From a virus, in the IMG/VR virus record IMGVR_UViG_3300045988_111035: a stretch of 61,812 bases of DNA; one strand, 5' to 3'. The first letter of the stretch is position 1, and each line of letters begins with the position of its first letter. The notes under the pieces were generated by a model. The model searched no databases. It was not told the origin of the DNA and saw only the letters and a list, made by a program, of their open reading frames with translations. Both the position numbers and the translations under genes were made by a program. Shown here one piece after another: positions 10,188-30,218 of the stretch.

Positions 10188-10205
10188 ATTCTTAATATTT
10201 TTCGG

Positions 10206-10287
10206 TAAAATTACTGCATTTTGCCCTCTCGCTTGTGATAAGTTGCGCAACTTATCGTTGTTTTTCCACTTTTTATGTCTATTTTTG
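10206..10287. promoter_or_regulatory. Bidirectional late-type promoter unit 2: perfect 20-bp palindrome GATAAGTTGCGCAACTTATC (10237..10256) flanked by -7 boxes
   Basis: The core is at 10243..10250. TAATTTTA lies on the minus strand at 10213..10206 and TATTTTTG on the plus strand at 10280..10287, each exactly 29 nt from the core. Confidence 0.7.
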
Positions 10288-10907: not shown

Positions 10908-13900
10908 TTACTCTAACTTCCTCACATGCTCCATTCCGTTCAAGTCCTTCAAGAGTTGCTGACGTGTCGAACGTATCTGTCTCAGCAGCTCCTTGTCCTC
11001 CTTTCCGCCCAACTTCTTCTTCAATCGGTTCATCTTGCTTGTGGCACGGCTGATGGCTTGGCGAGCCTTGAATATCCTTGCGTATGTCTCTCGGAACGAC
11101 TGAGCCTTGCCTGGGTCCGATTCCCTCAGCTCCGCCAATCGGTCGGCATATTGCTTGGTGCTGCTCTTGACACTCTGAATGCGCCAATCCTCGGTCACGT
11201 CCTTGGAGTCGGCAACCATCAGATACTTGTCATCCGCTTTCGTCAAGTCCTTGATGTCCTCGCCTTGCTGGTAAGCATCTACCATGTCCTTCGCCTCCTG
11301 CCAAGTAAATGCCTTGTACTCGCTTTGCGAGAGGAACTTTCTCATCTTTTCCCTCATCTTGCGTTTCTCGGTCACGCTCTTGGCTTCGTCAAAGCGTTGG
11401 GTGGCTATCTGCAACGAGGTTACACCGTCCTGCATTTCCTTCGATTCAAGTGCCTTGATGGAAGAGATTGCAGCTTGCAGTTGCTTCTCGGCATCAAGTC
11501 CATTTCGTTGGCAACTCTGATAGGTGAGGAACACGCCTTCCATGTCACCGCTTAGGATGAAGTTCTTGAAGTAGTCCTGTGCCTTCCAGTTGCTGAATCC
11601 CTTCGAGGATGGGAAGAAGAAGTCAACCGCCTTGAACTCCTTGTTTTCTTGGCTCGGAATCAAGAAAGGTGCCCAGTAGAGCGCATCCTTGTAAAGCAAA
11701 CCGATGGTCTTGCCATACTTGCGTTGTATCTCTTGGTCGGCATGGCTGGCTTGGAAGTCGCTCAAATAGTTGATGTCATCAAGCACCATTCTTGCCATTG
11801 GGTTAGCCTTACCTAGCATTCTCTGCACCATTGGGCCAGGGAACTCCAGTTCTCCCTTCGAGTTGAAAAGATACTCTGGAACCTCACGGAACTGCTTGCC
11901 ATGACGCACATACATTTCCGTGCCATCGGCATAGCGTCCTGCAAATATCTTGCTCTGCTGTCCTGCCGTGTTCCCTCTCATCAAATAGTCGTACCACTTC
12001 ATTCCGTCTGGATATGCCAATTCGTATGGACTCTTGTAACTAGGATTGGTCTTCCGTATCTCCTTGGCTTTCTCATTTTCCTTTTCCTCGTCCATCGCAC
12101 GGAAGGCGGTATTGATGCCATTGGCAAATGCCTCATAAAATCCAAAGCCTATCAAATAGCAGATTAATGCTGACACCTGTCTCTGCTTCCTACCAAAATA
12201 TTCAGGTGGAAGAGCTTCTTTCTTTCTAGCTGCTGCCCATACGTGGTTATAGTAATTCTTGAAGCTATCCAAGGTCGCCTCGTTCCAGATAGAGCCGAAA
12301 CCTGTAAGAGCCAAGAAATGGCGAGTCGTAGAGGCGTTCCAGTCTGGAGATAGAAGACAGCGACCAGCTATTTTCAAGGTTCGATGGCTTGCTCCCAGTA
12401 CATCCCAGTGCTGACCTCCAAACATATCGTTCACAAACTGACCATCCTCGTCCAAGGCTTTGCTTAGTTGCTCGCCCGTCCAACCGTATTTCTTGGCACG
12501 TTCTTTGGTTCTGTCCGCACGCATACGATAAGTGGCAAGTTTCAAACCATCATGCAAGAAGTCCCACAATGCCACGTCCATACCTTTATTGAGCATAGAA
12601 ACCATCTGCGTGGCTACCTCGAAAGGAATGGTTGCAGCACCTACTGCCGTTCCTATCTTGCCTCGCTCTCCCAATTTCTGTTGCAGTTTTTGGGCAAAAC
12701 CACGCCAGTTGTCAAACATATTCTGCACGTCCGCCGCCGCATAGTCGTTGGTCGCTCCAAACTTCACTAGGTGGGATGCCGCCTCCTGAAAGTCCTCGGG
12801 ATTGGCGAAACATGGCAACTGGTGCGTCCTCATGGTGTCAATGAAGATGTATTTCATAAAGTTGGCCATTGCCTTCTTGGGACCGAACTCTATCAGATTC
12901 TGGACCATATACACCTCGGTCAACGCTCCTGCATGGAATCCACTGAAACCAAGCTCAATCTTCTTGGCACTCGAAGCGGCGGTGTCGAACGCTCTCCAGA
13001 ATGGGGATGACTCATAAGTGTCGAACACCACCCCGAAACGGTCGGCTGCGCTCTTCTCGCTATATAGCACATACTCCTTGCCTGTGATTGGGTTCTTTAC
13101 CTTCACTTGCTTAGGGGAAACGTTATACACCCATACTGGACCTATGCCTGGAACCTCGAAGTACTTGTATTGCTCCAAGTTGAACGGTGCGACAGAAGAA
13201 AGAATCGGGTCGCTCGAAATGATGTCGCCGTTCTCGTCTCTCTCCACCACGTTCAAGCCGCTCACCTCTTGCAGCATGGTCTTGTTAGCCCACGCCTCGA
13301 TGTTGCTACGGCTGTAGTATGCCATCATCTTGGTGATGTCGGTGGTCTTCGGCACAAGTCCTAGGTTGATTCCCTCCATCAAGGTACTGATGGTTCTTGG
13401 CTTCTCGTTCGGGCTTTTCGTGCGCTGACGGTTCTCCACATACATCTTGTATGCCTCGGGATTGGACTTCTCCTTATCCCAGATGTGGTTTACGTAGTCG
13501 GCGGTGAAGCCAGTGTCCTCACGCAAGGTGTGGTTGTCCTTCAACCAGTCGTAGGTATAGTTGTACCAGTCGTGGATGGCATCAAGCGTTGACTTCATTT
13601 CCTCGGAAAGGTTCTCGTACTCGATACCCTTTGGAACGATTCTCGTATGGGCAATGAGCGGCTTCACTTGGTCTGTAAGGATGTCCGTGCCGTCAAGAGG
13701 AACAAAGCCAACGTCCAACTTGTGGTTCTCGTTGATGGCGTTCGCTATCTTGCTGGCTTGCTCGCTCACGGCGTGTACATCGTCGTACTCTGGCACAAGC
13801 TTCTCCTCGCCTCCCTTCTTCACCGTCTTGTAGTGGAATCTGCCTATCAATTCCTCGAAGTCATCGATGTAAGGTTGAATGTCTCTCACGTCCTTAGGAG

Positions 13901-16900
13901 TGATATGAATGTGCCCCTTGGCGAACACGCCTGTACTATTCAAGTCGAAAGCCAAGTCACGGATTCTTCTCGGTGCTTCTATTATATAAGGTATAGCCTC
14001 AGCGAGTGCATCTGCCTTAGAAGACTTCCCCTTATATTCCGAATAGAGCTTGTCGAAGACACCGCTTCCTGCCATGCCCTCGATGCGTCTCTTGATGTCG
14101 TTGATGTAGATGGCATCGTCGGCACTCGCCTCCTCCATGTTCTTTCGTCGGTGGATGACGGCATGTTTCACGGTTCGGGCTGCGCCTTCCTTGCTCACGT
14201 CCGTACTCGTCACCTCCGCCATGGCATCCATCACCCTCTTGTCAAGGTCTGCCGCCTCTGGTGAGGTCTCGGCTGGATATACCTTTCCCTCGTAAAGGTC
14301 TAGGTCGGCGGTCTCCTGCTCGTTCAGCTCATGTCGGGTCAGCCAATCCTCATAGCGTTGGGTTGCCTCCACTTGCTTCTGCTTCTCCCATGCGAACATG
14401 TCTGGCATAGGGTCTTCCTTGTCGTTGATGGCGTTCTGCCATTTCTCATATTCCTTGTAACGTGGGAAGAAGGATTCATCGCTCTCTCCTTCCTCTCGTT
14501 TTGGCAACGAAGGCATATCGTCGCCGACAAGTCCATGACGGTCACGCCAGTCCTTGTTGAGCTGTTCCCATTCCTTCTTGCCCTCCACGTCCTTGTCTAT
14601 GTCATAGAACTGAGGTGGCTCTGGGTCGTTGGTGTCCTCTCGGGCATCCTTCCACCGCTGCCACTCACGCACACGCTTCATGTATTGGATAGGACTCTCA
14701 CCCTTCTTCATGCGTGGTTTGCCACTGCCCTTGTCACTGAGCGCATTCTTGATGTCATCGCCTGTGGCTTGGCGCATGATGGCATCTTGCTTGTCCTTAG
14801 ACATGTTATCCCAAACGTGCAGAGCCTTCCCTGCCTTCATCAGGTAATAGCGCAAGTCCTTGTCGTTGAGAAGACCAGGAACACGGATTCCCAACTTCTT
14901 CAACGCCTTGATGAGATAGTGCTTCATCTTAGTCCAAAGGGTGAAGTCCTTTGCCGTCTTAGGGCCATCCTCCGCCAAGTGGGCGATGTATTCCTGGGTT
15001 GCCTCGTTGAGACGGTCGGCATTCTTCCATTCAGGGTCGTACTTGTTGGCGAAGTCGAGAATTTTGCCACGTGTGTCACCATCCACCGATTTATACACAA
15101 AGTTGGCGAAGTCTCTCACACCTTGCTCACCACCTAGAAGCACCTCCATGCCCTCGTGTCCCACCTTCTCATGGAAGACGGTGCGCTGCGCATCGTTGGC
15201 ATCCTCACAGTTAGGGAGATAGACATGAACGGTGTGGTTGCTTGGGTCGTACCATCCCTTTGCGCCACGTTCCACGTCCGCACGATACTCCTCAGGAACA
15301 CTCTCCACGGAAGCATAAACGTTAGCCTCAGCACCTCCAAGAGTGTTGGCTACATTCTTCACCACATCTAGTGTGTCCTTGCCGATAACAGAGCCATTGT
15401 TTCTCATGCCGTCGCCCAAGCGTGCCTTGGTCTTCTTTGCTTTCTTGCCATACACCTTGGAATAGTGAGTACCTGCATGTTCCCCTTCAAGAAGAACACC
15501 CTTGTTGTCGGTCTCGACAAAAGGAACGCCAAGTTTCTCCAACTCTTTTCTGAGACTTGGAGTTACCACGTTGGAAGGCATGATAACCTTTTTGTCCTTA
15601 AACATGTCGTTCACAATAACATCAGCTACCTCACTGTCAGGCACGATACGCACAGGTTTATCCCAACGAGAGAGAATCAGCTTACGTTTGCCTGTCAACT
15701 GTCCTTGGATAATACCTGCCTTCCACTCGACTTCACCCACAGCATCCTTGGCTTTGTCAGCCTTGTAACCACTGGTGAGCTCGCTCTTTGGCACCTCAAC
15801 CTCTACAGTTACAATGTTTGGACGATTCTGAGCCTCGCTAAACTGGTCATTCAGTGGGGTACGAGAAGTATGAAGGTAAGGATTGTAAGCAGCCTTTAGT
15901 GACTTACCGTTACCCTTGTTTAGGGTAAACATACCCTTATCGTCAGCAAGTTCTGGTCGCTCGTCTGCCTGTTCCCATTTACCAAGTTCGATAGGCTGCA
16001 CAAACTTGCCCTTCACCTTTGCAGCCATCGGTGGATAGAGTTTTCCATCATCACCAAGTTGCATGGCACGATACACTTTTACAGTGTCCTCATTATCAAG
16101 TTTCTTGATGGTCTTAGGGTCAGTCACAACTGAATAGCTGGCACCGCCTCCATCCATGACAATCTGGTCGCCTCTATCCACATCCTCTGTATCAGATGCC
16201 AATGAGTTTCTTCGTTCCTCGTCTGTCATGCCCATACGAGACATAACGTTTCGAGCCTCAACCTCTCCTGCAAGATTATAATAAAGTTCGTCATCAGAAA
16301 GATTCTTCAAGGCATCTTTCAGTTTGTTATTGATACCCAAGGCATCTTTGTTCCCCTTCGGAATCGAGTTCCAAACTTCGTCTGCCAAACGGTTGAGTTC
16401 ATTGATTGCCTCATCCACGTGATAGCCAGTTTCGGCAATTTGCTTGGCATTCAAGTCACTAAGTTGGTCATAGTCATTTACCAACTTCGAGTTTTCTTCA
16501 CCGTCCAATAGGTTCATGGCATCCCAATAGTACTCAATAGCCTTATCCTTAATGAAAGGATTGTCACTATTGATTAGCCCCTTGAACTTACCCAAATTCA
16601 ATGCTGTTTTTTTGAAGTCAACCCATGTCTTCATCTTTTGTAGGGCATAATCCGCATACTCAGAGTTTTCATCAATGATTTTCTGAATCCTCTTACGGAC
16701 ATCATTTGAGTTTCCACCCTTGGCAAAACCCTCGATATATTGGATTGCATGCTGCACTTCATGTGCAAGAACCTTTTTACCATAATCGTTCAATGAAATT
16801 TGTGTACCAAGGAACTTCACACCTTTTTCTAGAGGGATTGCATTTAATAGACGCACGACCTTAGCAACTTTCGGCATATCTTTCTCTATTTTATTAAAGA

Positions 16901-19900
16901 GTTCATCTGCCTTTAACTCATCCTCGGTATATCCACCAAACTGATCTATAGCATCATCCGCCCAACTTTTTGTATCATCAGGAAAGGAAGCACACGCATC
17001 CATAAATTTCTTTTTAGCAACCTCGATGTCCTTGAAATTAGATGGCTTAGAATATTTCTTCTCCACGGTAAACATATCCGTTCTTAACGCAATGTTATTG
17101 TGGAGATTATCATACATTCCTTGCAAATCCGTTTTCCCCACCATCTGAACATCAACGTTCTTTAGAGATGGATAAGCATCAAACAGCCCTTTATCATCAA
17201 TGAGGTCAGACAACTTACACAAAGGTTCGTTGTAAGGAGCATAAGGACCTACATGAACAATATTTATATCTTTATCTACAGTTATTGGCTTCTCTGATTT
17301 AAAATCAGGGATTTCATATCTCCATTTTCCATCAGCACCACGTTCCCAACCTGTTGCAAACTTTATGACTTTTGGTGTTAGAGCATTATTTTCCATCGCT
17401 TTTGCTACTTGCAGGTTATCCATGCGGATGGTTTGCTCCTCTGCCTTGTCAGCCTCAGCAGCTCCCTTCTCACCTGCAAACATGAAGCGAATGCCCTCAG
17501 AGTTATTGATGGCATCCATCGTAACCTTTTCACGTTCTTCCTTCCCATCATAAGTATGCACATCAATGCCAGCCTTCTTCAAGGCATCCACCACGTCCTT
17601 AGGAGTGTCCTTTGGCACAATAGCCTTCTCAAATTCATCAAGACCATAAGGACGCATGAACTTGGTCTCGAAATAGATGGAAGGCTTCTCATTCTTGACA
17701 GCATCAATCAATTCATTCAACTTGTCGATGTCCTCGTCAGTCAAGTCCACACCATACTCATCCTTAGCATATTTCTTTGGATTCTTCTGTGTGGCAGCCT
17801 CTTCCAATCTATCCATGCCATAGCTTTCAAATGGACCAGCATCAGGTTGCATCTTATCAGCCAACTCATCATAGACAGGTTGCCATTTTTCTTGGAACTT
17901 CTCAACGTCCTCATAGTTGTCGGTCAAATTGCCCTTCTTCTTGCGAATTTGGTCAAGAGTCCCCATAGGTTTCAATATGGATGCTACGAAATGACTGAAA
18001 GAAGCCGAACCAACGGAAGCATTCTTGCCATCTTGTTTCATTACCTTCACAGCATTCTCCACAGTGTTAGGCAGATACTTACGATTGCCATCTGGCTTAT
18101 ATCCAGCAAAGATAACCTCCTCCACATTATAGCGGTCATTAAGTTTTTCTTTCCATGAATCGAAGTCTTCCTTCATACTATTGTCCTGAATGTATTGTTG
18201 TGCAGCTTTCATCGTTGCATTCTCGTCCACCTTACCAGAAGTCTCTGCATCACGCAGTATGCCATCAACGAAACGAGACAAAGCCCCATAGTCATAGCCA
18301 TGTTCCTTCATCCAATCAACATCAAGTTGTTTGTTCTTGGCAATATTGGAGTTTGGTCTTTTTTTGATAAACTCCTCATCCTTCTTGATGAAGTTCTTGA
18401 TGTCATTGTCAAACTCCTCCCGATTACCATCATATACCTCACGAATGAACAAATCAAGAAGCTTTTCCTTCTGTTCATCAGTAGTTGAATAGATACTATC
18501 CAATTTTCCCAAGATGCCTTTCACCTCATCATGGAGTTCCTTTGGATATTTACCTTCCACATGCACCAACTCAGGAGCTTTTCCTTTCTCATGCAAATAG
18601 AGATAAGCCAAGCTGTTTGTATCACGACCATCCATGAAGCTGTTGATGGCATTTCTTGTGAGACTTTGCATTTCCTTTGGAACAGACTCGATGTCAATGT
18701 AAGCCACATCACTACCATTTCCGCCAAACTTTTTCTCTACAGGTGGATAGATAGGAGTCCACGCATCAGCAGCATAAGTACCGATGTTCTTGCCTGTTCT
18801 CTTGGCTATCTTTTCTGCCTTCGGTATCAGTGTAATCTCACCAAAGCCCGAATATATTCCGTTTTTGGAGTCTATTACACCCATGGAAGGAGCAGCAAAG
18901 CCACCTTGCTTGATAGCTTTGCGTAGCTTGTCAAGGCTGATGTTGTGCATACCAAACATGGTTTTGTCCGCATCCCTTGAAGCCTTAGCAGCCTTGGCAG
19001 CCTCTCGTGGGTCAATGCCATCGAGCAAGTCCTTCATCACACGGTCTGCTACCTCCTCAGCTGTGGTGAAGTGGATGTGAAGGAAGTCGGCAACCTTCTT
19101 CCAGAACTTGGCAAGAACCTTCTTCAACCGTTGAAGGGCATAGAGTGCCTTCGCCTTCTCCGTGACGCTACCATCACCGTCGAGGATGGCATCATACTCC
19201 TCACGGATTCGCTCCGCACCTCTCTTGCCTGAATATTGGGCAAGTACCTCGTCGGCGATGTCGCTGTCAGTCTCCAAGTGAGGATATTCCCTCCTCACCT
19301 TATCCCACACAGGCTTCAAGCCCTTCATGAGGTTCACGATGTTCTCCCACTCCTTAGAATTGCCAGAACGCACCGCCTCAGCCCACAAGTGGGCATATTC
19401 ATGGATAGGAGTTTCACTGTTCGCAATACGAGGGTCGATGTAAATCTTGCCATCTACGGTGTAACCGTATGCCTCACCGTTAGGAGTGCGGAAAAACTTC
19501 ACATGATTCTTTATCTGCATATCCTCTGGCTTGAAGATGACATAGTTAGTGTCACCTTCCTCTGCACCGCTACCATGATATACTCGCTGTTCACGAATGT
19601 AGTTGGCATTCACCTCCTGCTTCTCAGCAAGTCCAGTCGTGTCCTTGAACTCACCACTATACAGTGCTTGCTTGATAGAATTAGCGATGTCTGCCAAAGG
19701 TTTGCCCTCAGCCTTGCGCAACTTAATGGCATTATAGTAGAACTCAACGATATGAGCATCACCATCATTGGTAATACCTTTGTTGTCCTTATTGGTAACA
19801 ACGACACTGATAGCATCTGATTGTCCGTTTGTGTCTAGGTTGGAGACGGTTGCGTTATGGTCGCTGACACGGACAGTTACCACATTGCCATTCTTACACT

Positions 19901-22900
19901 CAAACGTGGCATACTTGCTAGACTTATCTTTCATGTCTATGCCAAGAGCGTCTGCCATTTCTCCTATGAAAGTTTTCGGCTGAGTTGGAGAGTTTTCTAA
20001 ATTCTTGACAAGACTATCAAGATTTTTTAGTATCTTTGCACCGTCAGCACTTGAAATGGCAGTTAATGACCTTGGATTTGCTCCAAGCGAGGCGGTTTCA
20101 AGTGCTCTCTTTTTCTTGGCACTCATTCTTACACCGTTCTCCATTTCAATCACTCTCTGCCCTTCTTCCACGTCGGTAATCACGTCCATGCCGCCCTCAC
20201 GTAATTTGTCGATGACGGCATCACGCAACACCTCTTCCTGACGTGTTGGTTTCAAGGCAGAGCTGCCCTTCTGATAACGCTCATCGGACTTGCGAGAGTT
20301 GAAACGTTGAGACAAAGGAATGACATTTCCCTTGTCATCGTATGTGACGGCATCAAGTAACTTTCGGTTGTTCTTGGTGTTCTTATAGGCAAAATCGGTG
20401 TCATTGGCATAGTCCTCTTCACGACCATAGCCCCATTCAGCTATATCGTTACCATCCCACCATATTTCATCAACAGGAACTTTCTGTTCAATAATATTGA
20501 AGTTATCACCCCAACCATGAACCTTAGCATTATCAACCGCATAAGCACGACTTGGAGTAACCCAATCACCATTTCTGAAAGAACCTTCCTTAACATCAGA
20601 AGGAACACTTCTATACATGGTAATAGTCTCACTCTTCTTCTGGATAGCGTTACGCACGTTATCAATAGCCTCCTTGCGCATAGGGTCAGCTGCACGATAA
20701 TTACGAGGGTCTAATGCTATGAAATCGAGATTCATCGCATCTATACCACGATGGATATAATCACCCAAAGTTTGGTCTCCGTCATATTCATCATTATCCC
20801 ACGCCTCCTTGCGCTCTTCCTTGGTCAAGAAGTAGCCATTGCCCCAAGGTGCAGAACCATTGAAGGCAGAAGTGCCCTGATAGCTGGAATCGGTAGAATA
20901 GCCAGCAGCCTCGGCAGCTTCATTCACCATTTTCTGAGCCTTTTCCATGTCGCCACGATTAACCGCATCAAGGTAATCTGCATCAAGCTGAGCCTGTTCG
21001 TCTGATACCTTGCTGAACCTAATCCTAGGATGTTGGTTCTCGTTCTCCTTGATTACCGCCTTGATGATAGCCGCCTCGTTAGGAGAAAGGATGATTTCTC
21101 CCTTCTCGTATGCGTTCCACAACGGCACACCACTCTTGTAGTCTTCCAACAAGGTTTCTATCATGTCACGCTCCGCCGTGGTAGAGCCATAACGATTCTT
21201 GCCGATAGTCCAAACCACGTCGTGACTTTCAGCATGTTTCTTTACTCTACCCCTGTATTTCTCTGGCTCACCAGTGGCATTCCACTTCTCACCCTTGATG
21301 ATTGAAGCCGCCTTGGGCTTCACCTCGCTCTTCACCATGGCATAGTTGGCAAACGGCTTTGTCTTGCGGTCTGAGGATTGCAGCCACTTGTCGAAGGTAG
21401 CCTTAGGCACGGAAGTAACCTCACCAAGACCTTTCCATCCTGGAGAATAGTTCTGCAAGTAAGCGTTCTTGGCATCCTCCTCGGAAGGATAGCCATACAT
21501 CACCTTGTGCTCGTCAAACTCGCCAGTCTGAGGATTCACTTGGTCGATGACGAACACGTTGCCGTCGAACGTGTCAAGGTCGGCGGCATCGTTGATGAAC
21601 ATGTCGATGTGGTCGCCATCAACACCTATCTTGCCAAGGACATAGCCATACGTGTCGTGCATGGTCACGCTCCAAGGCTTGCCACTCTCGTCCTTTCCGC
21701 TTCGGGTTACGCCCTTAGGTGTCTCCACCGTGAAATCATAGCCACCAAACTTCAAGTGACCTTTCTTGTAGTTGCCAGCCTTCTTCTGCGCCTCAGTAGG
21801 CTCAGTTTCCGTCTCGGCAATGGCGTTCTTTAGACGTTCTCCGAAGGATGCTTCTTGCGGTAGATGTGAAGTTCTATCAACTGTGCCTTCGCTAGATTCC
21901 ACGCTGCCAGTCTCTGGTCGCCTTTCGCTGACTTGATTAGATGTTGTTTCAGGCGAGGACTTATCAGAAACTTCTCGTCTGCCAGCTTCTTCGCCTTGGC
22001 TACTTCCTTCAACAACTCCTCTCCGTGCAGTGTCGCTATCCAGTCCACCGCCTCCTGCATTCTCTGCTTCTGTTCTTCTGTCATCATACTCTGATAGTTC
22101 TGGTAATATTGATTTTACGTAATCTTTATATTGATTCTCACGCTCCTGCTCAAACATGATTTGGTCATATTCCATACCATAGATGTTGTTCAGTTCGCTT
22201 TCAGATGGCAAAGATACTGCTTTATCTTGAATAAACGAATCAAACGCCTCTATTTCTGCCTGTCTTTCGTTAATTTCACGGTCTTTCTGAGCCTCATAAT
22301 ACTCTTCCTCAGTAGAAAGCTCGTTTTCCGCCTGTGCGATTCGATTAATCAAGGCGACATTCATCATGTCCTTCACGCTGTCGTATGTCTTGAACATATC
22401 AAGAAGTGCATTGCGAACATCTTGGTCAGTATAACCCATATTCTCCAAGTTTGGAGGAAGGTTCTCCCAAACACGCTTTGAAATGCTGGCTACAGTCTCA
22501 CCCTCGCCTTTCTTGGCCAAAAGATAATTGAACTTGTTGGAGTCATATCCCTTGCCTATGCCATACTTGAAGCTGTCCTTTCCAAGTTCCTGCTGCAAGG
22601 ATTCCGCATTGATGCCATGAACAGGAAGACGCTCGGATATGGCTTCTTCCAATGTCTGAGGTGTCAGGTCGGTAACATCAGTTGGAGCATCCTTGTAAAT
22701 TTGGGCGATGGCATTCATATCTCCCTTTGCCAAAGCCTTCTTGACTTGCTCACGTCTTTGCTCTGATGGGGTCATGCCTAAGTTTGACATTTCCGCCGCA
22801 TCAAGTTCATCCTTATAAAGCCTATTCAACTTGCTTGCTTGCGCCTTCAATTCCTTGGCAGAGTCGGTCAAGCCTTGCTGACGTGCCTCCAACTGAGCCT

Positions 22901-25900
22901 TGGTGGTGTTTATTTCCTTGATTTGCTCTGGCTCCAGCTCTATCTCACCGTTCTTGTATTGTTCCAACACATCCTTTATCCCATCTATCTGAGGTTGAAC
23001 CTCGTTGGATTGCAAGTCGTAGATACGCTTTCGCTCAGAGGCAATATGGTTGCTAGCCTCATCCAAAGTAGGATATTGCTTCTTCAATTCGTCATTTGAC
23101 AAAACAGAGACCTCACGCTCATCGGAAGGAGCGATGGCACTTTCATCCACACCAACGTCCTTGATTGTCTTGGTGCGCTCATCCTTCATCGCCCTGATTT
23201 CATCGGGAGTCATCACGGAATTGCGGATAGTGTTCCAATTTTTGTAGCGAGTGGAAAGGTCATCCATCTGCTCTTTCACAAGGTTCAGCTCGTCTGTCAC
23301 CTTCTGAGCCTTCGATGGGTCTAGGTCGGCATTGGTGTCAAGCCAGTCCTCGTACTCGGCTGCTTGCTTTCTCTTGTTGTCAAGTTGCTCCTTGATGTCG
23401 GCACGACTACCATTGATAAGGCTCAACAGTTTCCCATGATCCTCGCCATACTCGTCCTGCAAGTACTCAGCCACCACCTTAGGGTCTGACTCCTTGGATG
23501 AATAGTCCATCTTGCCGTCCTCATATCCCACGATTCCATCAGCGAAACGTTGTTTCTTCTCGGTCTCAGCCTTGGCAACGGCATCGTTCTCACGCTGCAC
23601 CTCCTCTGCGTCAAGTTCGGCATTGATGGACGCTTGCATGGCGTTGTTGCGCATTTGTGCGAACTCCTCCTTTGTGAGTGCTATTTGGTCTTTGCCATCG
23701 GAAAGCACAATACGCCCATCTTGGGTATATCCTGCAAACGACATGGAAATAGAGTCAGTTCCTGACTCCATGGCTATCTCCACGGTTTGCCCTGGTTGCA
23801 AGTTGCTTCCGTCAAACATGGAAGTGAACTTCTGGACAGTTGCAGCATGATTCTGCTCCGCCAGTTGGTTCACATAGTCTTGGAAAGGAATTGGGTTGCC
23901 TATTTCCTTGATTTCAGATGTATGTATCTGCCTAATCGTAGGTTGACCATTCTCGTCGGTGGTGGTTACGAAAGTGCCTCCATACTCGTTAGCCTTCTTC
24001 AAGAATGCCGTCGTACCATCCAAAAGGGTAACAGGAACAATGTTTCCGTCTTCGGTGGCGTATGGCCAAAGCTGCTCTGTCATAGCCTCGGCATAGCCAT
24101 CATCGGCGTGGTCAATACCATAGAGCACACCTTGCTTGGCTTGATGTGCGTCGGCATACTTGCGTATGGCATCACGCTGCACCTCATTGAGCATGTTGGC
24201 TTTCTGGGCGATAAACTGCTCCATGTCCTTACCTTCATCAATAGCATTGTATATCGTCTGTAGCAAGGTCTCGTTCCCCTTGAAGGCACGCTGCAACCTA
24301 GCCTCAGCCACATCGTCGGCATGGTATATTGCCGTCAAGGTCTCGCTATCTACATTGGCAACCGCATCCTGACCACGCTTGTACGCATCACTGACGGAAG
24401 GAGTTTCACCACCTACTGATGAAGAAGGTGGGGTTGGAGGTGTTGGCGGAGTCGTTGTAGGCTCTGTAGGAGGAACACCACTTGCTACCTCTTGGCTATT
24501 TTCGGCTATATTGCGGACATTTTCGGCTATTTTTTGACCGTTTTCTTCCACTGGAGTTGTTTGAGGTGTCGTTTCTGTTGGATTTTCTCCTTCTGCTGTA
24601 ACACCGCTTTTCCCGATTTGCTTCTGCCCTTCGCTATGAGACTGGCGGTAAAGGTCATCCACCGTCTGTTTCATTTCACGTTTCAGTACGATGTCGTTAT
24701 AGAGCTGCTTCTGGTATGCCTCAACAAGTTTCTGCTGCTTCTCGGTGCGTTTCTTGCCATCACCTTCCAAAGCCTCACGAAGTGTCCCATGTGGCACGCC
24801 TTGCGAATCCTCGAAGGTGCGCACATAGTCACGCATGATGCTGCTATTCTCGAAGGCACTGTCATAGAAGTGGCGATAGCCATTCAGAAGTTGTTGCTCC
24901 TGCTCGGTCAACTCCATACCACTCTGCTGCTTTTGCATGATGTCACCTATTGCATTGGCATTCTGGTGCAAGTAGATGGCTGCTTTGTCCTCGTCGGTCA
25001 AACCTTCGCCCATACCATATTTCTCCCTTGCCTTGGCATAGACATCATCCAAGTGCTCCTGCAAGGCATCGGTATGGTAGGCGTTTTCGTAAGCGGAAGT
25101 GAGATTGAGAGACTTTTCGTAGTCAAGGCTTTTCTCAGCCTTCTTGGCTTCATCGTATGAGGAGAATGATTTGCGGTCGATAATTCCACCGTCCTTGTTC
25201 AACGTCTCCAGATACACCTTGCCGTCCATCGGTTGCACGATGATGCTGTCTATGACTGGCGAGAAGGACTGAGGACGCTTGCCCTCGACCACCGCCATCA
25301 TCTTTGCCTTCAACACCTCAGGAACGGATTTGTCGCTCATCAAGTCCATGTACTTCTTAGTGAGTTGTCCCATCAATTCAGCATCACCATTGATACTGTT
25401 GCCGTTGATGCCCAAATCCTCGAAGGCGGTGCGTAGGTCATCGTAGCCGAATCGTCTCAACTGGGCTAAGTCCTCATCGTTGAAGTCATATTTGCGGTTG
25501 AACTCCCTCGCATCCTTGAAATGTGCGTACTTGCCCATCATGCCAGGAAGACCGATTGCCGTGAGGTTTGCCATGCTTTCCAAGAAACTCTCGGCGGCAT
25601 CCTTGCCTGTTGGCTTGAAATTAGGGTCTTGCGCCATGTGCTCAATCAACGCCTGACCTGTCATGATGCTGGAGTCAACGGCTTTCCCACCCACGTCTGC
25701 GAGAATGTTGGCTGCAAGACCTCTTCCCTTGCCTATCATGTTGGCAAGAGTGCCACCTGGCATGATAGTGCCAAGTGCAGCTCCCTTGGTCACCTCTCCT
25801 ATTGTTTTGGCGAGAACCTTTTCAACCGATGTATGGTATGGCTTTCCGTTCTCGTCAAACTGACCGTCACGGTAAACCTCATTGATAGGCGTGGAAATGG

Positions 25901-27698
25901 CAGACTGACCACCAAACGTTACCGCTCCATGGGCTGCCCCAGTCTTCAACGCCGTGGTCTTGCTTCTTCCGACGAGCATCTTGGCGGCACGCTCAGCCAT
26001 CTTGCGCTCCATGCCCTTTGCCATCAAGTCACCTGCAAGCTTGCCCTCAGCCTTGGCAATCATACTCTTGGTAATCTTGCCTCCTGCCGCACCTGGTAGC
26101 CAATAACTCCAAGCGTCACCTGCGAAGGTAAGAGCACCGCTAGCCACGTTCTCCCAAAATCCAGGCTGATACTGTTGGTTGGCCATGTCCTCCAACCAAT
26201 TCTGATAATCGGTCTGCATCAGTTTGCGTGACACCTTGCCAACGATAGTATTGCCCAAGCCAGTCTTCATGATGTACTCGAAACTGTTATGAGGAATGAG
26301 CTTCTTCATTTCCAAACGGTCAAGTTCTCCCTTGATAGAGGCGTTGAGCATAGGTTTCACGTATGTCTTGACAAAATCATCTATCTTGTCATAACTATAG
26401 CCACGTTTGTCCATCACCTTGACCAACGCCAAGGTGAAATCAGGGTCATCCACGATACCGCTCAACTGCTTGGTAAGCAAGTTGAGAACCTTCTGAGGGT
26501 CACGCATCTTGTTGTACTCACCCATAGCCGTTGCAGTCTGAGGTGAAGCCGCATCTACAGAATAGAATCCACTATAGGTGTCGTTGTACTTCTGTAAATA
26601 GCTGTTTGCCTCTGCCTCAGCCTTATTGATGGCATCAGCTACTGGTTGCTTGATGAATTGGTTGATGATGGACGCTGCATCATTGTAGTTGTCATTTTGC
26701 TCTAGCTGGCTATCCACATCACCCTCATGAGCATAAAGGCGTGTGGCAACGTCCTCGGCTATCTTTCGGTAGTTGCTGCCATACTTCTCCACAAGGCTCT
26801 CCACCATGGCTGGCTTCACGAAGTGGGCAATGTAGTCATCATAGCTGATACCCATGCGTGTAGCCTCGTCCTTCAAGTTGTCCTGCACGTCGTGGCTATA
26901 CCACTGGGAGTTTATGACATCACCCACATTGCCCGAATTGTCGGCGTTCAATGAGGAGACAAACTGATTGGTGGTCTGCTTCGCCAAGATGTCAGCCGTG
27001 CCAAACAAACCTTGCTTAGCCATTTCGATGGCTTCTTCTGGCGTTTTCGCCCTGCCATCAGCCAACAAGTCGGATGCGGTCTGCTGCAAGGCATCCACGT
27101 CACCGCCTTGGCTGAGATAGTTGCCATACTTGGCTACGATGTCGTTGGACGTATCGTTTGTCACCACGTCTGGCTTCACTTGTTGTGTTGGTGTCGCAAC
27201 CTCTTCCTGCTGATTTCCTTCCACAACCGACTGAGGAATGGAAGGAGAAGGTTGTAATGTTCCGTTGCTGGTCTGCACGCCCTTCGGAATCATTCCCATG
27301 GCTTGCGAAATGAGACCGATCTTTCCCTCCTCTGAGGATGGTTGCTCCACTTGATTGGTGGCAACAGGTGCGTTAACTGGCTTCTGTTGCACCGTTTGCT
27401 GTTGGGTTGGCAGTGTCTGAGGTTGCTGACCGCTAGCCACTGGTTGCCCACTCGTTGGAACGGAAGTAGAAGAAGGAGCTGCTTGCGAGGTGGAACTGGA
27501 AGGAGTAGGCTCCAACACCATATTGTCGAAGTCCTGCGAACTTCCCACATCGTAACCCATGCTCTTGGCTTCGTTATAGTACCAGTCACGGTCTTCCTTG
27601 TTATTCAAGTCTTTCTTGAAGTCATCATAGCTGCCTACTTGGTAGCCGTTCTTTTTGAACTCCTCATAGAAATACTTTCTGTCTTGCTCGTCATACAT
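10908..27698 (-). CDS. Giant polyvalent-type virion/ejection protein (5,596 aa)
   Basis: A single uninterrupted 16.8-kb ORF. It has a Gly-rich hydrophobic N-terminal region, an inorganic-pyrophosphatase-like segment, an R-S-E ART-like segment, two HExxH zincin motifs and a C-terminal hydrophobic/coiled-coil region. All other ORFs in this span are antisense or off-frame. Confidence 0.85.
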   Translation of the reverse strand: MYDEQDRKYFYEEFKKNGYQVGSYDDFKKDLNNKEDRDWYYNEAKSMGYDVGSSQDFDNMVLEPTPSSSTSQAAPSSTSVPTSGQPVASGQQPQTLPTQQQTVQQKPVNAPVATNQVEQPSSEEGKIGLISQAMGMIPKGVQTSNGTLQPSPSIPQSVVEGNQQEEVATPTQQVKPDVVTNDTSNDIVAKYGNYLSQGGDVDALQQTASDLLADGRAKTPEEAIEMAKQGLFGTADILAKQTTNQFVSSLNADNSGNVGDVINSQWYSHDVQDNLKDEATRMGISYDDYIAHFVKPAMVESLVEKYGSNYRKIAEDVATRLYAHEGDVDSQLEQNDNYNDAASIINQFIKQPVADAINKAEAEANSYLQKYNDTYSGFYSVDAASPQTATAMGEYNKMRDPQKVLNLLTKQLSGIVDDPDFTLALVKVMDKRGYSYDKIDDFVKTYVKPMLNASIKGELDRLEMKKLIPHNSFEYIMKTGLGNTIVGKVSRKLMQTDYQNWLEDMANQQYQPGFWENVASGALTFAGDAWSYWLPGAAGGKITKSMIAKAEGKLAGDLMAKGMERKMAERAAKMLVGRSKTTALKTGAAHGAVTFGGQSAISTPINEVYRDGQFDENGKPYHTSVEKVLAKTIGEVTKGAALGTIMPGGTLANMIGKGRGLAANILADVGGKAVDSSIMTGQALIEHMAQDPNFKPTGKDAAESFLESMANLTAIGLPGMMGKYAHFKDAREFNRKYDFNDEDLAQLRRFGYDDLRTAFEDLGINGNSINGDAELMGQLTKKYMDLMSDKSVPEVLKAKMMAVVEGKRPQSFSPVIDSIIVQPMDGKVYLETLNKDGGIIDRKSFSSYDEAKKAEKSLDYEKSLNLTSAYENAYHTDALQEHLDDVYAKAREKYGMGEGLTDEDKAAIYLHQNANAIGDIMQKQQSGMELTEQEQQLLNGYRHFYDSAFENSSIMRDYVRTFEDSQGVPHGTLREALEGDGKKRTEKQQKLVEAYQKQLYNDIVLKREMKQTVDDLYRQSHSEGQKQIGKSGVTAEGENPTETTPQTTPVEENGQKIAENVRNIAENSQEVASGVPPTEPTTTPPTPPTPPSSSVGGETPSVSDAYKRGQDAVANVDSETLTAIYHADDVAEARLQRAFKGNETLLQTIYNAIDEGKDMEQFIAQKANMLNEVQRDAIRKYADAHQAKQGVLYGIDHADDGYAEAMTEQLWPYATEDGNIVPVTLLDGTTAFLKKANEYGGTFVTTTDENGQPTIRQIHTSEIKEIGNPIPFQDYVNQLAEQNHAATVQKFTSMFDGSNLQPGQTVEIAMESGTDSISMSFAGYTQDGRIVLSDGKDQIALTKEEFAQMRNNAMQASINAELDAEEVQRENDAVAKAETEKKQRFADGIVGYEDGKMDYSSKESDPKVVAEYLQDEYGEDHGKLLSLINGSRADIKEQLDNKRKQAAEYEDWLDTNADLDPSKAQKVTDELNLVKEQMDDLSTRYKNWNTIRNSVMTPDEIRAMKDERTKTIKDVGVDESAIAPSDEREVSVLSNDELKKQYPTLDEASNHIASERKRIYDLQSNEVQPQIDGIKDVLEQYKNGEIELEPEQIKEINTTKAQLEARQQGLTDSAKELKAQASKLNRLYKDELDAAEMSNLGMTPSEQRREQVKKALAKGDMNAIAQIYKDAPTDVTDLTPQTLEEAISERLPVHGINAESLQQELGKDSFKYGIGKGYDSNKFNYLLAKKGEGETVASISKRVWENLPPNLENMGYTDQDVRNALLDMFKTYDSVKDMMNVALINRIAQAENELSTEEEYYEAQKDREINERQAEIEAFDSFIQDKAVSLPSESELNNIYGMEYDQIMFEQERENQYKDYVKSILPELSEYDDRRTEAENAGGGGLDSDTARRGVVEGSSQGEEAGRREVSDKSSPETTSNQVSERRPETGSVESSEGTVDRTSHLPQEASFGERLKNAIAETETEPTEAQKKAGNYKKGHLKFGGYDFTVETPKGVTRSGKDESGKPWSVTMHDTYGYVLGKIGVDGDHIDMFINDAADLDTFDGNVFVIDQVNPQTGEFDEHKVMYGYPSEEDAKNAYLQNYSPGWKGLGEVTSVPKATFDKWLQSSDRKTKPFANYAMVKSEVKPKAASIIKGEKWNATGEPEKYRGRVKKHAESHDVVWTIGKNRYGSTTAERDMIETLLEDYKSGVPLWNAYEKGEIILSPNEAAIIKAVIKENENQHPRIRFSKVSDEQAQLDADYLDAVNRGDMEKAQKMVNEAAEAAGYSTDSSYQGTSAFNGSAPWGNGYFLTKEERKEAWDNDEYDGDQTLGDYIHRGIDAMNLDFIALDPRNYRAADPMRKEAIDNVRNAIQKKSETITMYRSVPSDVKEGSFRNGDWVTPSRAYAVDNAKVHGWGDNFNIIEQKVPVDEIWWDGNDIAEWGYGREEDYANDTDFAYKNTKNNRKLLDAVTYDDKGNVIPLSQRFNSRKSDERYQKGSSALKPTRQEEVLRDAVIDKLREGGMDVITDVEEGQRVIEMENGVRMSAKKKRALETASLGANPRSLTAISSADGAKILKNLDSLVKNLENSPTQPKTFIGEMADALGIDMKDKSSKYATFECKNGNVVTVRVSDHNATVSNLDTNGQSDAISVVVTNKDNKGITNDGDAHIVEFYYNAIKLRKAEGKPLADIANSIKQALYSGEFKDTTGLAEKQEVNANYIREQRVYHGSGAEEGDTNYVIFKPEDMQIKNHVKFFRTPNGEAYGYTVDGKIYIDPRIANSETPIHEYAHLWAEAVRSGNSKEWENIVNLMKGLKPVWDKVRREYPHLETDSDIADEVLAQYSGKRGAERIREEYDAILDGDGSVTEKAKALYALQRLKKVLAKFWKKVADFLHIHFTTAEEVADRVMKDLLDGIDPREAAKAAKASRDADKTMFGMHNISLDKLRKAIKQGGFAAPSMGVIDSKNGIYSGFGEITLIPKAEKIAKRTGKNIGTYAADAWTPIYPPVEKKFGGNGSDVAYIDIESVPKEMQSLTRNAINSFMDGRDTNSLAYLYLHEKGKAPELVHVEGKYPKELHDEVKGILGKLDSIYSTTDEQKEKLLDLFIREVYDGNREEFDNDIKNFIKKDEEFIKKRPNSNIAKNKQLDVDWMKEHGYDYGALSRFVDGILRDAETSGKVDENATMKAAQQYIQDNSMKEDFDSWKEKLNDRYNVEEVIFAGYKPDGNRKYLPNTVENAVKVMKQDGKNASVGSASFSHFVASILKPMGTLDQIRKKKGNLTDNYEDVEKFQEKWQPVYDELADKMQPDAGPFESYGMDRLEEAATQKNPKKYAKDEYGVDLTDEDIDKLNELIDAVKNEKPSIYFETKFMRPYGLDEFEKAIVPKDTPKDVVDALKKAGIDVHTYDGKEEREKVTMDAINNSEGIRFMFAGEKGAAEADKAEEQTIRMDNLQVAKAMENNALTPKVIKFATGWERGADGKWRYEIPDFKSEKPITVDKDINIVHVGPYAPYNEPLCKLSDLIDDKGLFDAYPSLKNVDVQMVGKTDLQGMYDNLHNNIALRTDMFTVEKKYSKPSNFKDIEVAKKKFMDACASFPDDTKSWADDAIDQFGGYTEDELKADELFNKIEKDMPKVAKVVRLLNAIPLEKGVKFLGTQISLNDYGKKVLAHEVQHAIQYIEGFAKGGNSNDVRKRIQKIIDENSEYADYALQKMKTWVDFKKTALNLGKFKGLINSDNPFIKDKAIEYYWDAMNLLDGEENSKLVNDYDQLSDLNAKQIAETGYHVDEAINELNRLADEVWNSIPKGNKDALGINNKLKDALKNLSDDELYYNLAGEVEARNVMSRMGMTDEERRNSLASDTEDVDRGDQIVMDGGGASYSVVTDPKTIKKLDNEDTVKVYRAMQLGDDGKLYPPMAAKVKGKFVQPIELGKWEQADERPELADDKGMFTLNKGNGKSLKAAYNPYLHTSRTPLNDQFSEAQNRPNIVTVEVEVPKSELTSGYKADKAKDAVGEVEWKAGIIQGQLTGKRKLILSRWDKPVRIVPDSEVADVIVNDMFKDKKVIMPSNVVTPSLRKELEKLGVPFVETDNKGVLLEGEHAGTHYSKVYGKKAKKTKARLGDGMRNNGSVIGKDTLDVVKNVANTLGGAEANVYASVESVPEEYRADVERGAKGWYDPSNHTVHVYLPNCEDANDAQRTVFHEKVGHEGMEVLLGGEQGVRDFANFVYKSVDGDTRGKILDFANKYDPEWKNADRLNEATQEYIAHLAEDGPKTAKDFTLWTKMKHYLIKALKKLGIRVPGLLNDKDLRYYLMKAGKALHVWDNMSKDKQDAIMRQATGDDIKNALSDKGSGKPRMKKGESPIQYMKRVREWQRWKDAREDTNDPEPPQFYDIDKDVEGKKEWEQLNKDWRDRHGLVGDDMPSLPKREEGESDESFFPRYKEYEKWQNAINDKEDPMPDMFAWEKQKQVEATQRYEDWLTRHELNEQETADLDLYEGKVYPAETSPEAADLDKRVMDAMAEVTSTDVSKEGAARTVKHAVIHRRKNMEEASADDAIYINDIKRRIEGMAGSGVFDKLYSEYKGKSSKADALAEAIPYIIEAPRRIRDLAFDLNSTGVFAKGHIHITPKDVRDIQPYIDDFEELIGRFHYKTVKKGGEEKLVPEYDDVHAVSEQASKIANAINENHKLDVGFVPLDGTDILTDQVKPLIAHTRIVPKGIEYENLSEEMKSTLDAIHDWYNYTYDWLKDNHTLREDTGFTADYVNHIWDKEKSNPEAYKMYVENRQRTKSPNEKPRTISTLMEGINLGLVPKTTDITKMMAYYSRSNIEAWANKTMLQEVSGLNVVERDENGDIISSDPILSSVAPFNLEQYKYFEVPGIGPVWVYNVSPKQVKVKNPITGKEYVLYSEKSAADRFGVVFDTYESSPFWRAFDTAASSAKKIELGFSGFHAGALTEVYMVQNLIEFGPKKAMANFMKYIFIDTMRTHQLPCFANPEDFQEAASHLVKFGATNDYAAADVQNMFDNWRGFAQKLQQKLGERGKIGTAVGAATIPFEVATQMVSMLNKGMDVALWDFLHDGLKLATYRMRADRTKERAKKYGWTGEQLSKALDEDGQFVNDMFGGQHWDVLGASHRTLKIAGRCLLSPDWNASTTRHFLALTGFGSIWNEATLDSFKNYYNHVWAAARKKEALPPEYFGRKQRQVSALICYLIGFGFYEAFANGINTAFRAMDEEKENEKAKEIRKTNPSYKSPYELAYPDGMKWYDYLMRGNTAGQQSKIFAGRYADGTEMYVRHGKQFREVPEYLFNSKGELEFPGPMVQRMLGKANPMARMVLDDINYLSDFQASHADQEIQRKYGKTIGLLYKDALYWAPFLIPSQENKEFKAVDFFFPSSKGFSNWKAQDYFKNFILSGDMEGVFLTYQSCQRNGLDAEKQLQAAISSIKALESKEMQDGVTSLQIATQRFDEAKSVTEKRKMREKMRKFLSQSEYKAFTWQEAKDMVDAYQQGEDIKDLTKADDKYLMVADSKDVTEDWRIQSVKSSTKQYADRLAELRESDPGKAQSFRETYARIFKARQAISRATSKMNRLKKKLGGKEDKELLRQIRSTRQQLLKDLNGMEHVRKLE

Positions 27699-29042: not shown

Positions 29043-29546
29043 TTACCATGGCAAACTGTTGGCTGCGCTCGCCAACCCACCTGCCGCCTGACCGATTGCC
29101 TTAGCCTGACCTATGCCACGTTCCTTCTGCGTGGAAGCGATGTACTCCGTCATCTTGCCTATCTGGCTGTCGGCGTTGTTCCATACGTTCTCCTTGTTCT
29201 GAGCACCTTGAACCGCTGCGTCCTGCATCATCTTGCCCACCTGCTCCTGCGCCGCTTGCTTGCTGAGCGCAACCGACTCGTCGCTGCCACCTGTCACGAT
29301 GTTCGTGCCCTTGGCTTTCTTCGTGGCATCGTCAAGCACCTTCTGTGCGTTCGTCACCGCCACTTGGTTCTCTGCGCTCTGCGTCGGGTCTTGGTAGTAG
29401 AGGGCATCACGATGGTCCTTTACGTCCTGCATACGGTTCTGATATGTCTTCAAGGCTTGGTCGTATGCCTTGTTCATTGCTTTTGCTGAAAGAACGCCAC
29501 CCACTGCCGAGGTGAGTCCACCAGCTATACTTCCTATCAATCCCAT
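29043..29546 (-). CDS. Glycine-zipper membrane-active internal protein candidate
   Basis: 167 aa. The N-terminus is GLIGSIAGGLTSAVGGVLSA and the C-terminus is GQAAGGLASAANSLPW. It is the first gene after the minus arm of promoter unit 3. Confidence 0.5.
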   Translation of the reverse strand: MGLIGSIAGGLTSAVGGVLSAKAMNKAYDQALKTYQNRMQDVKDHRDALYYQDPTQSAENQVAVTNAQKVLDDATKKAKGTNIVTGGSDESVALSKQAAQEQVGKMMQDAAVQGAQNKENVWNNADSQIGKMTEYIASTQKERGIGQAKAIGQAAGGLASAANSLPW

Positions 29547-30074: not shown

Positions 30075-30082
30075 CTACGCAA

Positions 30083-30133: not shown

Positions 30134-30218
30134 GGAATGATATGTTGGGAATGCGTACCGAAATAAAACTATTTTAACACAATTTACACAATAAGCGTAC
30201 CAAAAACATCTTAATCCG

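Follow-up and report, generated by a model that had tools for sequence, protein, structure and literature searches.

Polyvalent proteins are regarded as the earliest weapons that a phage brings into its host cell, and very few of them have been studied experimentally. In phage P1 the large proteins DarB and DdrB are packed in the head, injected, and protect the incoming DNA. Here we analyse a single open reading frame (ORF) of 5,596 codons at 10908..27698 on the minus strand of a 61,812-bp virus genome (IMG/VR record IMGVR_UViG_3300045988_111035; this whole stretch of DNA is called the window below). Comparison of its product with protein families and with related phages supports its assignment to the phage polyvalent proteins, the class proposed for it in an earlier note made from the letters of the window. 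Within the protein two long constant ends, here called the N-chassis and the C-chassis, enclose a hypervariable central part, the cassette.

The polyvalent proteins described by Iyer et al. carry unrelated enzymatic and LPD domains on one chain, with InPase, PBECR and LPD families among them, belong to portal-terminase phages where they stand beside virion genes, and vary in architecture between homologues (PMC5512222). The product of the giant ORF is like them in each of these respects. It differs in being far larger than most members, more than 75% of the polyvalent proteins counted having two or three domains (PMC5512222), in its fixed N- and C-chassis of about 3,600 amino acids (aa) around the variable part, and in that most of this chassis was unmatched by Pfam and PHROG models in the scans run.

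A second comparable protein is gp47 of the temperate, Shiga toxin (Stx)-converting phage phi24B, which is 2,811 aa long with LPD5, LPD1, LPD38 and MuF-C peptidase domains. According to the description of that phage, proteomics detected gp47 in purified virions although the reconstruction does not show it, and the authors proposed that it is encapsidated and serves in ejection (bioRxiv 10.64898/2026.04.10.717836). By this description it resembles the window protein in being large, polyvalent and encoded by a temperate phage. It has half the length and other LPD domains, and shows no variable cassette in the account available. The virion RNA polymerase (vRNAP) of phage N4, gp50 (3,500 aa, 'beads-on-a-string'), is packed in the capsid of this podovirus and ejected by way of the tail with the smaller gp51 and gp52 (PMC13434306), and Iyer et al. 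assigned a zincin (MPTase) domain to it as well (PMC5512222). The window protein would likewise join many loosely linked domains in one giant chain and have two smaller partners, a partnership judged here from gene order, but it has no RNA polymerase domain. With P1 it is linked by PHROG 10089, 'DarB-like antirestriction', one of several PHROGs matched around the InPase domain. That match is limited to aa ~1309-2125 and is strongest at InPase itself, and Pfam scans of the window gave no DarB-type helicase or methyltransferase.

Results

A single gene encoding a polyvalent protein

The giant ORF starts with ATG and has one terminal stop codon and none inside. It occupies 27.2% of the window, and the predicted product has a mass of 629 kDa and is acidic (isoelectric point 5.2). 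IMG/VR was scanned with the last 1,096 residues, which gave 153 relatives, and 80 loci were kept. In 79 of these the homologous frame is open across all of the at least 13.2 kb available. Twenty-one genes were rebuilt by joining N-terminal and C-terminal loci of the same contigs, and 19 of them hold a single ORF of 5,501-6,347 aa. A prophage copy was found in the complete chromosome of Segatella copri G8 (NZ_CP146523, around 3.12-3.14 Mb), with the frame open for at least 4,431 codons; metagenome-assembled genomes of S. copri and Prevotellaceae also hold the gene as a prophage (at least 4,311-4,431 codons open). Because of these prophages the host lineage is taken to be Segatella (Prevotella) copri. 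The giant ORF is a genuine gene and no assembly artefact, and the uninterrupted frame of 16.8 kb described in the earlier note stands.

In two more distant relatives, L133 (915-15502) and L125 (78-15337), with a C-terminal domain 38-39% identical to that of the window, the giant is divided into an ORF of about 3,000-3,300 aa and another of about 1,800 aa that is read in the -1 frame. The break in L125 coincides with a scaffold gap of Ns. In L133 the two ORFs overlap by 55 nt (85 nt are open in both frames) without a slippery heptamer, and this split may be either real or an error. A programmed -1 frameshift was considered for these relatives and dropped on account of the Ns in L125 and the missing heptamer in L133.

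Three Pfam families matched the giant protein above their curated cut-offs: InPase (PF18823, aa 1969-2107, E = 8e-51, 171.9 bits, cut-off 26.8), PBECR5 (PF18814, aa 2910-3130, E = 2.5e-16, 60.7 bits, cut-off 25) and LPD23 (PF18838, aa 3406-3465, E = 1.5e-11, 44.3 bits, cut-off 27). All three were originally defined on phage and plasmid polyvalent proteins (PMC5512222), and these matches support the classification of the giant ORF product as a phage polyvalent protein. Unrelated activities are predicted on the one chain (an InPase phosphoesterase, a PBECR5 RNase, LPD23 and two HExxH modules), the setting is that of a portal-terminase phage with virion genes (TerL, P22-type portal, SU10-type capsid), and the combination and order of domains vary among homologues. 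The central regions of four relatives contained Kinase-PolyVal, ART-PolyVal, PBECR2, PBECR5, LPD3, LPD23 and C5 DNA methylase domains, and in the wider set of homologues SprT-like, NTP_transf_2 and methyltransferase domains were also present. The inorganic-pyrophosphatase-like segment named in the earlier note was recovered by Pfam as InPase; PBECR5 and LPD23 were additions to its list. Neither a chimeric or interrupted ORF nor a plain tape-measure or fibre protein devoid of enzymatic domains was encountered. When 32 modules taken from the window protein and from relatives were compared with Pfam, nothing beyond LPD23 was added. An NCBIfam scan of the giant protein gave no match, nor did megablast of the giant gene or tblastn of its last 996 aa against the phage collection.

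Two constant ends and a hypervariable cassette

When the protein was aligned with its relatives by BLASTP, similarity to 74 of them broke off at aa ~2125 and returned at aa ~4092. The cassette between these points, aa 2126-4091 (15426..21323, like all parts of the giant gene on the minus strand), is 1,966 aa long here compared with 1,081-2,741 aa in relatives. Discrete breakpoints recur at aa 2208/2237, 2475, 2708-2741, 2898-2909, 3379/3403, 3518/3541, 3806, 3855 and 4088/4092. The modules they delimit are present in subsets of the relatives and their order differs among them; as judged from the alignments, these sharp borders are where the cassette takes up modules, loses them and changes their order. 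They also occur in about 200 other database proteins at 45-80% identity, in different orders and beside other polyvalent domains, one such protein being a Prevotella pallens 'ADP-ribosyltransferase-containing protein'. The guanine plus cytosine (GC) content falls to 0.40-0.44 at 16308-18707, compared with 0.50-0.53 in the conserved ends of the giant gene. This dip coincides with rarely shared modules (the PBECR5 block and aa 3519-3805) and suggests recent acquisition from a source of lower GC content.

The N-chassis (aa 1-2125, 21324..27698), delimited by BLASTP against the relatives, is about 60% identical to them over aa ~600-2125, and in 73 of 74 loci the similarity stops at aa ~2125, right after the InPase domain. 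A motif scan found the doubled GYxVGSxxDF of the earlier note at aa 18-27 and 48-57 (27528..27647), and only some relatives have an N-terminus of this type. A second type of N-terminus, seen in the relatives at loci L090-L124, begins MADKDNKSKL.YHVWDKDNNEYDIP and the two types are alike only from about aa 126 on (window aa 1-125 = 27324-27698). The most conserved stretch of the whole protein is a Gly/Ala-rich segment at aa 480-730 (25509..26261), in which almost all alignment columns are invariant and conservation per 100-aa bin is 0.75-0.89; it has no match in Pfam, PHROGs or the PDB. The earlier note had called this region Gly-rich and hydrophobic. The first description holds and the second does not, as no Kyte-Doolittle window reaches 1.3. 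A charge-rich region follows at aa ~1400-1900 (21999..23501), which is probably helical from its composition and from a crude check for 3.5-residue (heptad-type) periodicity. For the long coiled coils listed in the earlier note, this crude check is what the analysis covered. A search of PDB sequences with the N-chassis profile returned noise only.

The last element of the N-chassis is the InPase domain, a type I inorganic-pyrophosphatase-like domain (21378..21794), where the Pfam match spans the full profile (positions 1-135 of 135). In 20 relatives the DGDHID motif and its flanks are near-invariant and further acidic positions are invariant, so that the acidic metal-binding residues expected of the type I inorganic pyrophosphatase family appear to be kept. 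The domain matches residues 636-763 of PDB entry 9b41_L, 'gp19 portal' (E = 1e-23), which by sequence makes it homologous to the C-terminal domain of the solved portal protein 9b41. Fusions of InPase with portal proteins were reported by Iyer et al. (PMC5512222).

The C-chassis (aa 4092-5596, 10911..15425) is 73% identical in all 80 relatives and starts sharply at aa ~4092. It opens with a GWYD...HExxxH domain (aa ~4140-4313, 14760..15281) in which the motif, HEKVGH at aa 4176, is invariant. This domain matches PHROG 14770 and is common to giant proteins of two cultured Bacteroides phages described below, gp68 of BF1-TP2 (37%) and gp55 of BKO1-TP3 (30%). The C-chassis ends in a domain of about 1,060 aa (aa 4501-5596, 10911..14198), which was examined by AlphaFold2, Foldseek and profile search. 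The AlphaFold2 model (predicted local distance difference test score, pLDDT, 73.8; predicted template modelling score 0.65) is mainly helical with two small sheets. The earlier note had listed a hydrophobic and coiled-coil part at the C-terminus; just one hydrophobic helix was found (aa 5174-5195).

Foldseek gave nothing at E<0.1 for this model against the PDB. Against BFVD it gave 22 matches at E<1e-3, which with one exception are pieces later than the first (suffix _2 to _4) of giant proteins from other phages. The best of these (probability 1.0, E down to 4e-15) are proteins of uncultured phages named 'large polyvalent protein associated domain-containing', and the weaker ones include a 'structural protein' of Flavobacterium phage vB_FspP_elemoC_14-1A and a Cellulophaga phage protein. 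When a profile of the domain was searched against 1.84 billion representative proteins, 2,562 clusters were found at E<=1e-3 and 445 at E<=1e-30. Among the 147 best hits the match ended within 80 residues of the C-terminus in every case; 43 of these proteins have at least 3,000 aa (maximum 7,483 aa), and in 25 of the 43 an InPase domain occupies a comparable place. Relatives even larger than the giant ORF product are found in dozens of database clusters. By these matches the window protein is an average-sized member of a large family of giant proteins sharing a terminal domain. Neither the domain of the window nor nine divergent short members of its family had a match in Pfam or PHROGs.

Modules of the cassette

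The first module of the cassette, module A (aa 2232-2476, 20271..21005; YRSVP..GDWVTPS..WWDGND..E), is a mobile domain delimited by alignment. Its core, aa 2336-2428, matches PHROG 2579, and many other proteins contain the module at 45-74% identity. Pfam gave no match for it, and a profile search against PDB sequences returned noise. Module A is most probably the segment that the earlier note had called 'ART-like' on the basis of an R-S-E pattern. That identity gained no support: the Pfam ART models do not match, and an AlphaFold2 model of aa 2200-2705 (pLDDT 74.8) gave nothing significant in Foldseek against the PDB, the only ART-like results being IcmQ (E = 1.2) and PARP13 (E = 3). A homologue that has module A and lacks the ART core likewise has no precomputed ART hit. 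Module X (aa 2485-2702, 19593..20246; ..YATFExxNG..TxRxSDHNA..) is a second mobile domain, recognised from database homologues, some of which have a Pfam LPD3 hit alongside; in the window it has no Pfam hit.

Module B (aa 2730-2905, 18984..19511) is zincin-like by its conserved motif, HEYAH at aa 2766. In 20 homologues (26-48% identity) the H, E and H never vary, nor does a D-E pair some 50 residues farther downstream, and HEY.H is present in 50 database homologues. A profile search of PDB sequences with module B returned noise. It is followed by the PBECR5 module (aa 2909-3405, 17484..18974), a predicted RNase of the Barnase-EndoU-ColicinE5/D-RelE type, which is present in 12 of the 80 relatives and is 44% identical to BF1-TP2 gp68, and by the LPD23 domain (17304..17483), present in 44 of the 80. 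Module E (aa 3519-3805, 16284..17144), found in 7 of the 80 relatives, carries the second HExxH motif, HEVQH at aa 3646. AHEVQHAIQ is conserved in the database homologues P0070 and P0092, HEVQH is found in 4 homologues, and P0092 alone has a precomputed SprT-like Pfam hit. Two HExxH motifs, as counted in the earlier note, compare with 0.11 expected by chance, and both are kept in homologues, in module B together with a downstream acidic pair, as in zincins. Module F (aa 3806-4088, 15435..16283) has no Pfam hit. It is about 87% identical in the 44-62 relatives that have it, compared with 73% for the adjoining C-chassis, which hints at recent exchange between phages or at stronger constraint.

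At four module borders, aa 2226, 2473, 2733 and 3403 (nt ~21021, 20280, 19500 and 17490), the sequence x-[RK]-[FY] was noticed (IRF, ERY, VKF and IRF), and homologues from other proteins have the similar junctions DPRF, DIRY and KPRF. As a junction motif, [IVE][RK][FY] was rejected: 4 of its ~11 occurrences in the cassette lie near breakpoints compared with ~2 expected, which is not significant.

Between modules X and B the window protein carries the scar of a deleted ART-PolyVal domain (aa 2703-2728, 19515..19592; RVYHGSGA|EEGDTNYVIF), that is, both ends of the domain with the core missing, as judged from gaps against two homologues. The Alloprevotella homologue P0070 has about 190 residues more at this point, opposite a clean gap in the window. 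The nearest relative, L002, is 91-96% identical on both flanks and has 236 extra residues there, which match ART-PolyVal (PF18760) with E = 1.5e-7 and 32.7 bits against a cut-off of 31.2; the window protein itself has no ART-PolyVal Pfam hit. The window genome has thus recently lost, by an in-frame deletion of 236 aa, an effector module that its nearest relative retains.

Neighbouring genes and cultured relatives

Two genes precede the giant gene on the same strand. The nearer one encodes a protein of 434 aa (27723..29027, minus strand, 25 nt before the giant ORF) of low complexity, S/T/P-rich and then Q/A/K-rich, which is weakly similar to BF1-TP2 gp69 and has no match in Pfam, PHROGs or the phage database. 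The farther one (29043..29546, minus strand), 16 nt before the 434-aa gene, encodes a 167-aa protein with Gly-rich hydrophobic N- and C-termini. Homologues of it stand at the same position in BF1-TP2 (gp70, 41%), BKO1-TP3 (gp57, 31%) and BS-TP4. Both genes had been seen in the earlier note as low-complexity genes for internal proteins; low complexity applies to the 434-aa one, and 'internal protein' is an interpretation. A candidate promoter for the operon is a Bacteroidetes-type -7 box matching the consensus, TACTTTTG (29580..29587, minus strand), which precedes the start codon of the 167-aa gene by 34 nt; this motif is barely enriched in the window (52 matches compared with 36 expected). A small ORF of opposite orientation (29691-30070, plus strand) lies between the integrase gene and the 167-aa gene, and BKO1-TP3 gp58 has the same position.

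Downstream, the next gene on the same strand encodes a P22-like portal (8136..10250, minus strand; Pfam P22_portal, E = 8e-37; PHROG 156). In the phage collection this portal is matched best by those of three cultured temperate phages of Bacteroides. Two cultured phages, BKO1-TP3 and BF1-TP2, were described in PMC12694917; a term search of its text met no mention of the giant gene, and no morphology is reported for either phage. In BKO1-TP3 the gene order is integrase, a 159-aa homologue of the 167-aa gene product (gp57), a 371-aa gene, the 5,553-aa gene gp55 and portal. The product of gp55 (XPO94969.1, 'DarB-like antirestriction') resembles the window protein in this neighbourhood, in an InPase domain at a similar position, in the HExxxH domain and in a doubled N-terminal GY..(D/E)F motif. 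BF1-TP2 has a variant layout with the portal elsewhere. Its giant protein gp68 (3,633 aa, 'hypothetical protein') shares the InPase, PBECR5 and HExxxH islands and the order integrase, small, medium and giant gene. Similarity to gp55 and gp68 is confined to these islands, at 30-44% identity, and the N- and C-chassis profiles of the clade do not detect the corresponding remainder of either protein. Adjacent small, medium and very large genes, as in the podovirus ejection sets T7 gp14/15/16 and N4 gp50/51/52, are thus found in the window and kept in BF1-TP2 and BKO1-TP3. In GenBank, BF1-TP2 gp60 (L001 17818-19845), which is 42% identical to the large terminase of the window (PHROG 2), is labelled 'tail spike protein', as is BKO1-TP3 gp51 (L135 1-1987) at the corresponding position; both labels are probably mis-annotations.

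Otherwise the window is the genome of a temperate tailed phage. It contains genes for the large terminase TerL (5303-7480, plus strand), an SU10-type major capsid protein (1893-3437, minus strand), a tyrosine integrase (30219-31715, minus strand), and, at 36.7-39.3 kb, a DNA methyltransferase and a replication initiator. A search for tRNA genes gave none. The 657-nt gap between the giant and portal genes holds a 154-aa ORF on the plus strand (10315-10779), preceded by a TAnnTTTG box at 10280-10287; the ORF has no PHROG match, and the gap to the portal has no terminator-like site. Two low-GC islands, 30000-34000 and 40000-44000 (0.36-0.40 compared with ~0.50 elsewhere), are possible accessory or early regions; in the second the GC skew is strongly positive. 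A 960-aa protein encoded at 48165-51047 on the plus strand, opposite to its structural-looking neighbours, matches PHROG 32516 of unknown function strongly (E = 4.5e-107).

Discussion

We consider it probable that the giant protein is packed in the phage head and expelled together with the DNA, its conserved ends serving packaging and translocation and its cassette modules hitting host nucleic acids and proteins early. The giant gene most likely shares one operon transcript with the two genes upstream of it, those for the 167-aa and 434-aa proteins. Its product would be packed into the capsid of a temperate, probably short-tailed S. copri phage and expelled into the host with the DNA. The N- and C-terminal blocks may act as a constant carrier and the cassette as an exchangeable payload. 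The chassis and the 167-aa and 434-aa proteins could then provide for incorporation into the capsid and for passage through, or construction of, a channel across the envelope. The payload in this phage would comprise two mobile domains, two zincin-like modules, the PBECR5 RNase, LPD23 and one further module, which may attack targets in the host as soon as infection begins; the zincin-like modules are candidates for self-processing and could possibly cleave the polyprotein into active pieces. Packaging in the head is the most likely arrangement because the gene stands among virion genes, InPase is homologous to part of a portal protein, phi24B gp47 is present in virions, and N4 offers an analogue.

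The ORF, its domain content, the division into chassis and cassette, the shuffling and loss of modules, the distribution of the family and the conserved neighbourhood are shown by the analysis. Packaging, ejection, proteolytic processing and a role in anti-defence or host takeover are inferred from context and from analogues, and several points weigh against them. A mass of 629 kDa is a very large cargo for a capsid with a genome of about 62 kb. The models matched by the capsid protein (SU10-type) and the portal (P22-type) do no more than suggest a short tail. Similarity to solved ejection proteins was not found in the PDB: sequence searches gave only the InPase domain of a portal protein, and the fold search with the C-terminal domain gave nothing. 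The zincin-like peptidase reading of modules B and E follows their conserved motifs; in the window neither module has a Pfam peptidase hit or a PDB sequence hit. For four cassette modules and most of the chassis a recognisable fold was not found. Finally, the plus-strand ORF at 10315-10779 separates the giant gene from the portal gene, so that co-transcription of the two is not required.

The alternative that survives best is that the giant is primarily an ejection or conduit protein in the manner of T7 gp16 or, as proposed, phi24B gp47. Its chief task would be to form the channel by which the DNA of a short-tailed phage crosses the envelope, and its modules would serve penetration of the cell wall or envelope and not host defence. 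This partly overlaps with the explanation preferred here, the purpose of the modules being the main difference. A trio of small, medium and giant genes resembles the known sets of ejection proteins (PMC13434306), the portal and capsid are of podovirus-associated types, the C-terminal domain is widespread and terminal in all 147 best hits, and an ejection role was proposed for gp47 in the description of phi24B. The modules, however, are a predicted RNase and pyrophosphatase, with ART, kinase and DNA methylase domains in relatives, that is, activities of the cytoplasm, directed at nucleic acids or modifying proteins, rather than envelope-degrading ones; lysozyme, transglycosylase and other cell-wall domains were not found in the protein, and it has only one weakly hydrophobic helix. 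Rapid turnover of modules also speaks more for an arms race than for a structural function. We therefore regard a protein that is mainly a conduit as unlikely.

Less likely still is a protein that is not packaged at all and works inside the cell that makes it or in the lysogen, where it might exclude superinfecting phages or manipulate the host from the prophage. A similar function was suggested by Iyer et al. for polyvalent genes kept in host genomes (PMC5512222). It would agree with the temperate nature of the phage, which is integrated in S. copri chromosomes, with the position of the gene cluster next to the integrase end of the prophage, and with the many module homologues on large, apparently chromosomal contigs. 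Against it, the giant gene has the same orientation as the adjoining portal gene, InPase also occurs in a portal protein, and a comparable polyvalent protein is present in phi24B virions. A gene that is universal in the clade, takes up 27% of the genome and is intact in 79 of 80 loci also points to a core rather than a moron-type function.

That the giant is an ordinary tape-measure or fibre protein is very improbable. Its great length and its Gly-rich and charge-rich helical stretches are of that kind, and BFVD gave weak tape-measure hits, only at E>0.2. No tape-measure or fibre family matched in Pfam or PHROGs, whereas three polyvalent-specific domains did; the neighbours are the portal and integrase-side genes and not tail genes, and 5,596 aa would mean a tail of about 0.8 um. 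An assembly chimera or decaying pseudogene, suggested by the split frames in 2 of the 21 rebuilt relatives and in the two more distant contigs, has a negligible chance in view of the open frames in the other loci, reconstructions and the complete isolate chromosome, the scaffold gap at one of the splits, and strong protein-level conservation throughout.

Beyond the preferred explanation of a packaged and expelled protein, we put forward more tentatively that the constant parts, the Gly-rich segment and the ~1,060-aa C-terminal domain, are not enzymes and form a dedicated protein-delivery device, with the cassette as a hot-swappable payload bay that gut Bacteroidales phages refit over short times. 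If this were true, the giants with this terminal domain would make up a class of phage effector carriers that is widespread and has until now gone unrecognised, and the window protein, with the 167-aa and 434-aa proteins, would be a 'beads-on-a-string' cargo of about 630 kDa that is loaded into the capsid and threaded into the cell.

Polyvalent proteins as a kind have been known since 2017, and a gene of similar size with the same neighbourhood was already deposited for a cultured Bacteroides phage. The sharp division into carrier and cassette, the very widespread terminal domain and the conserved arrangement of three genes are, to our knowledge, undescribed. The C-terminal domain could act as a search handle for giant phage cargo proteins. 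More than 150 related human-gut genomes amount to a natural experiment in which the carrier is constant and the payload differs, including the loss of an ART domain between phages that are 91-96% identical. The prophage in a complete S. copri isolate genome and the cultured Bacteroides relatives with the same layout are tractable entry points, and the clade is a good system for testing the delivery of giant phage cargo proteins. If the reading of the protein as carrier and payload is true, it would help to explain host range and the evasion of defence in phages of a major gut bacterium, and would suggest a scaffold by which engineered proteins may be delivered with phage DNA.

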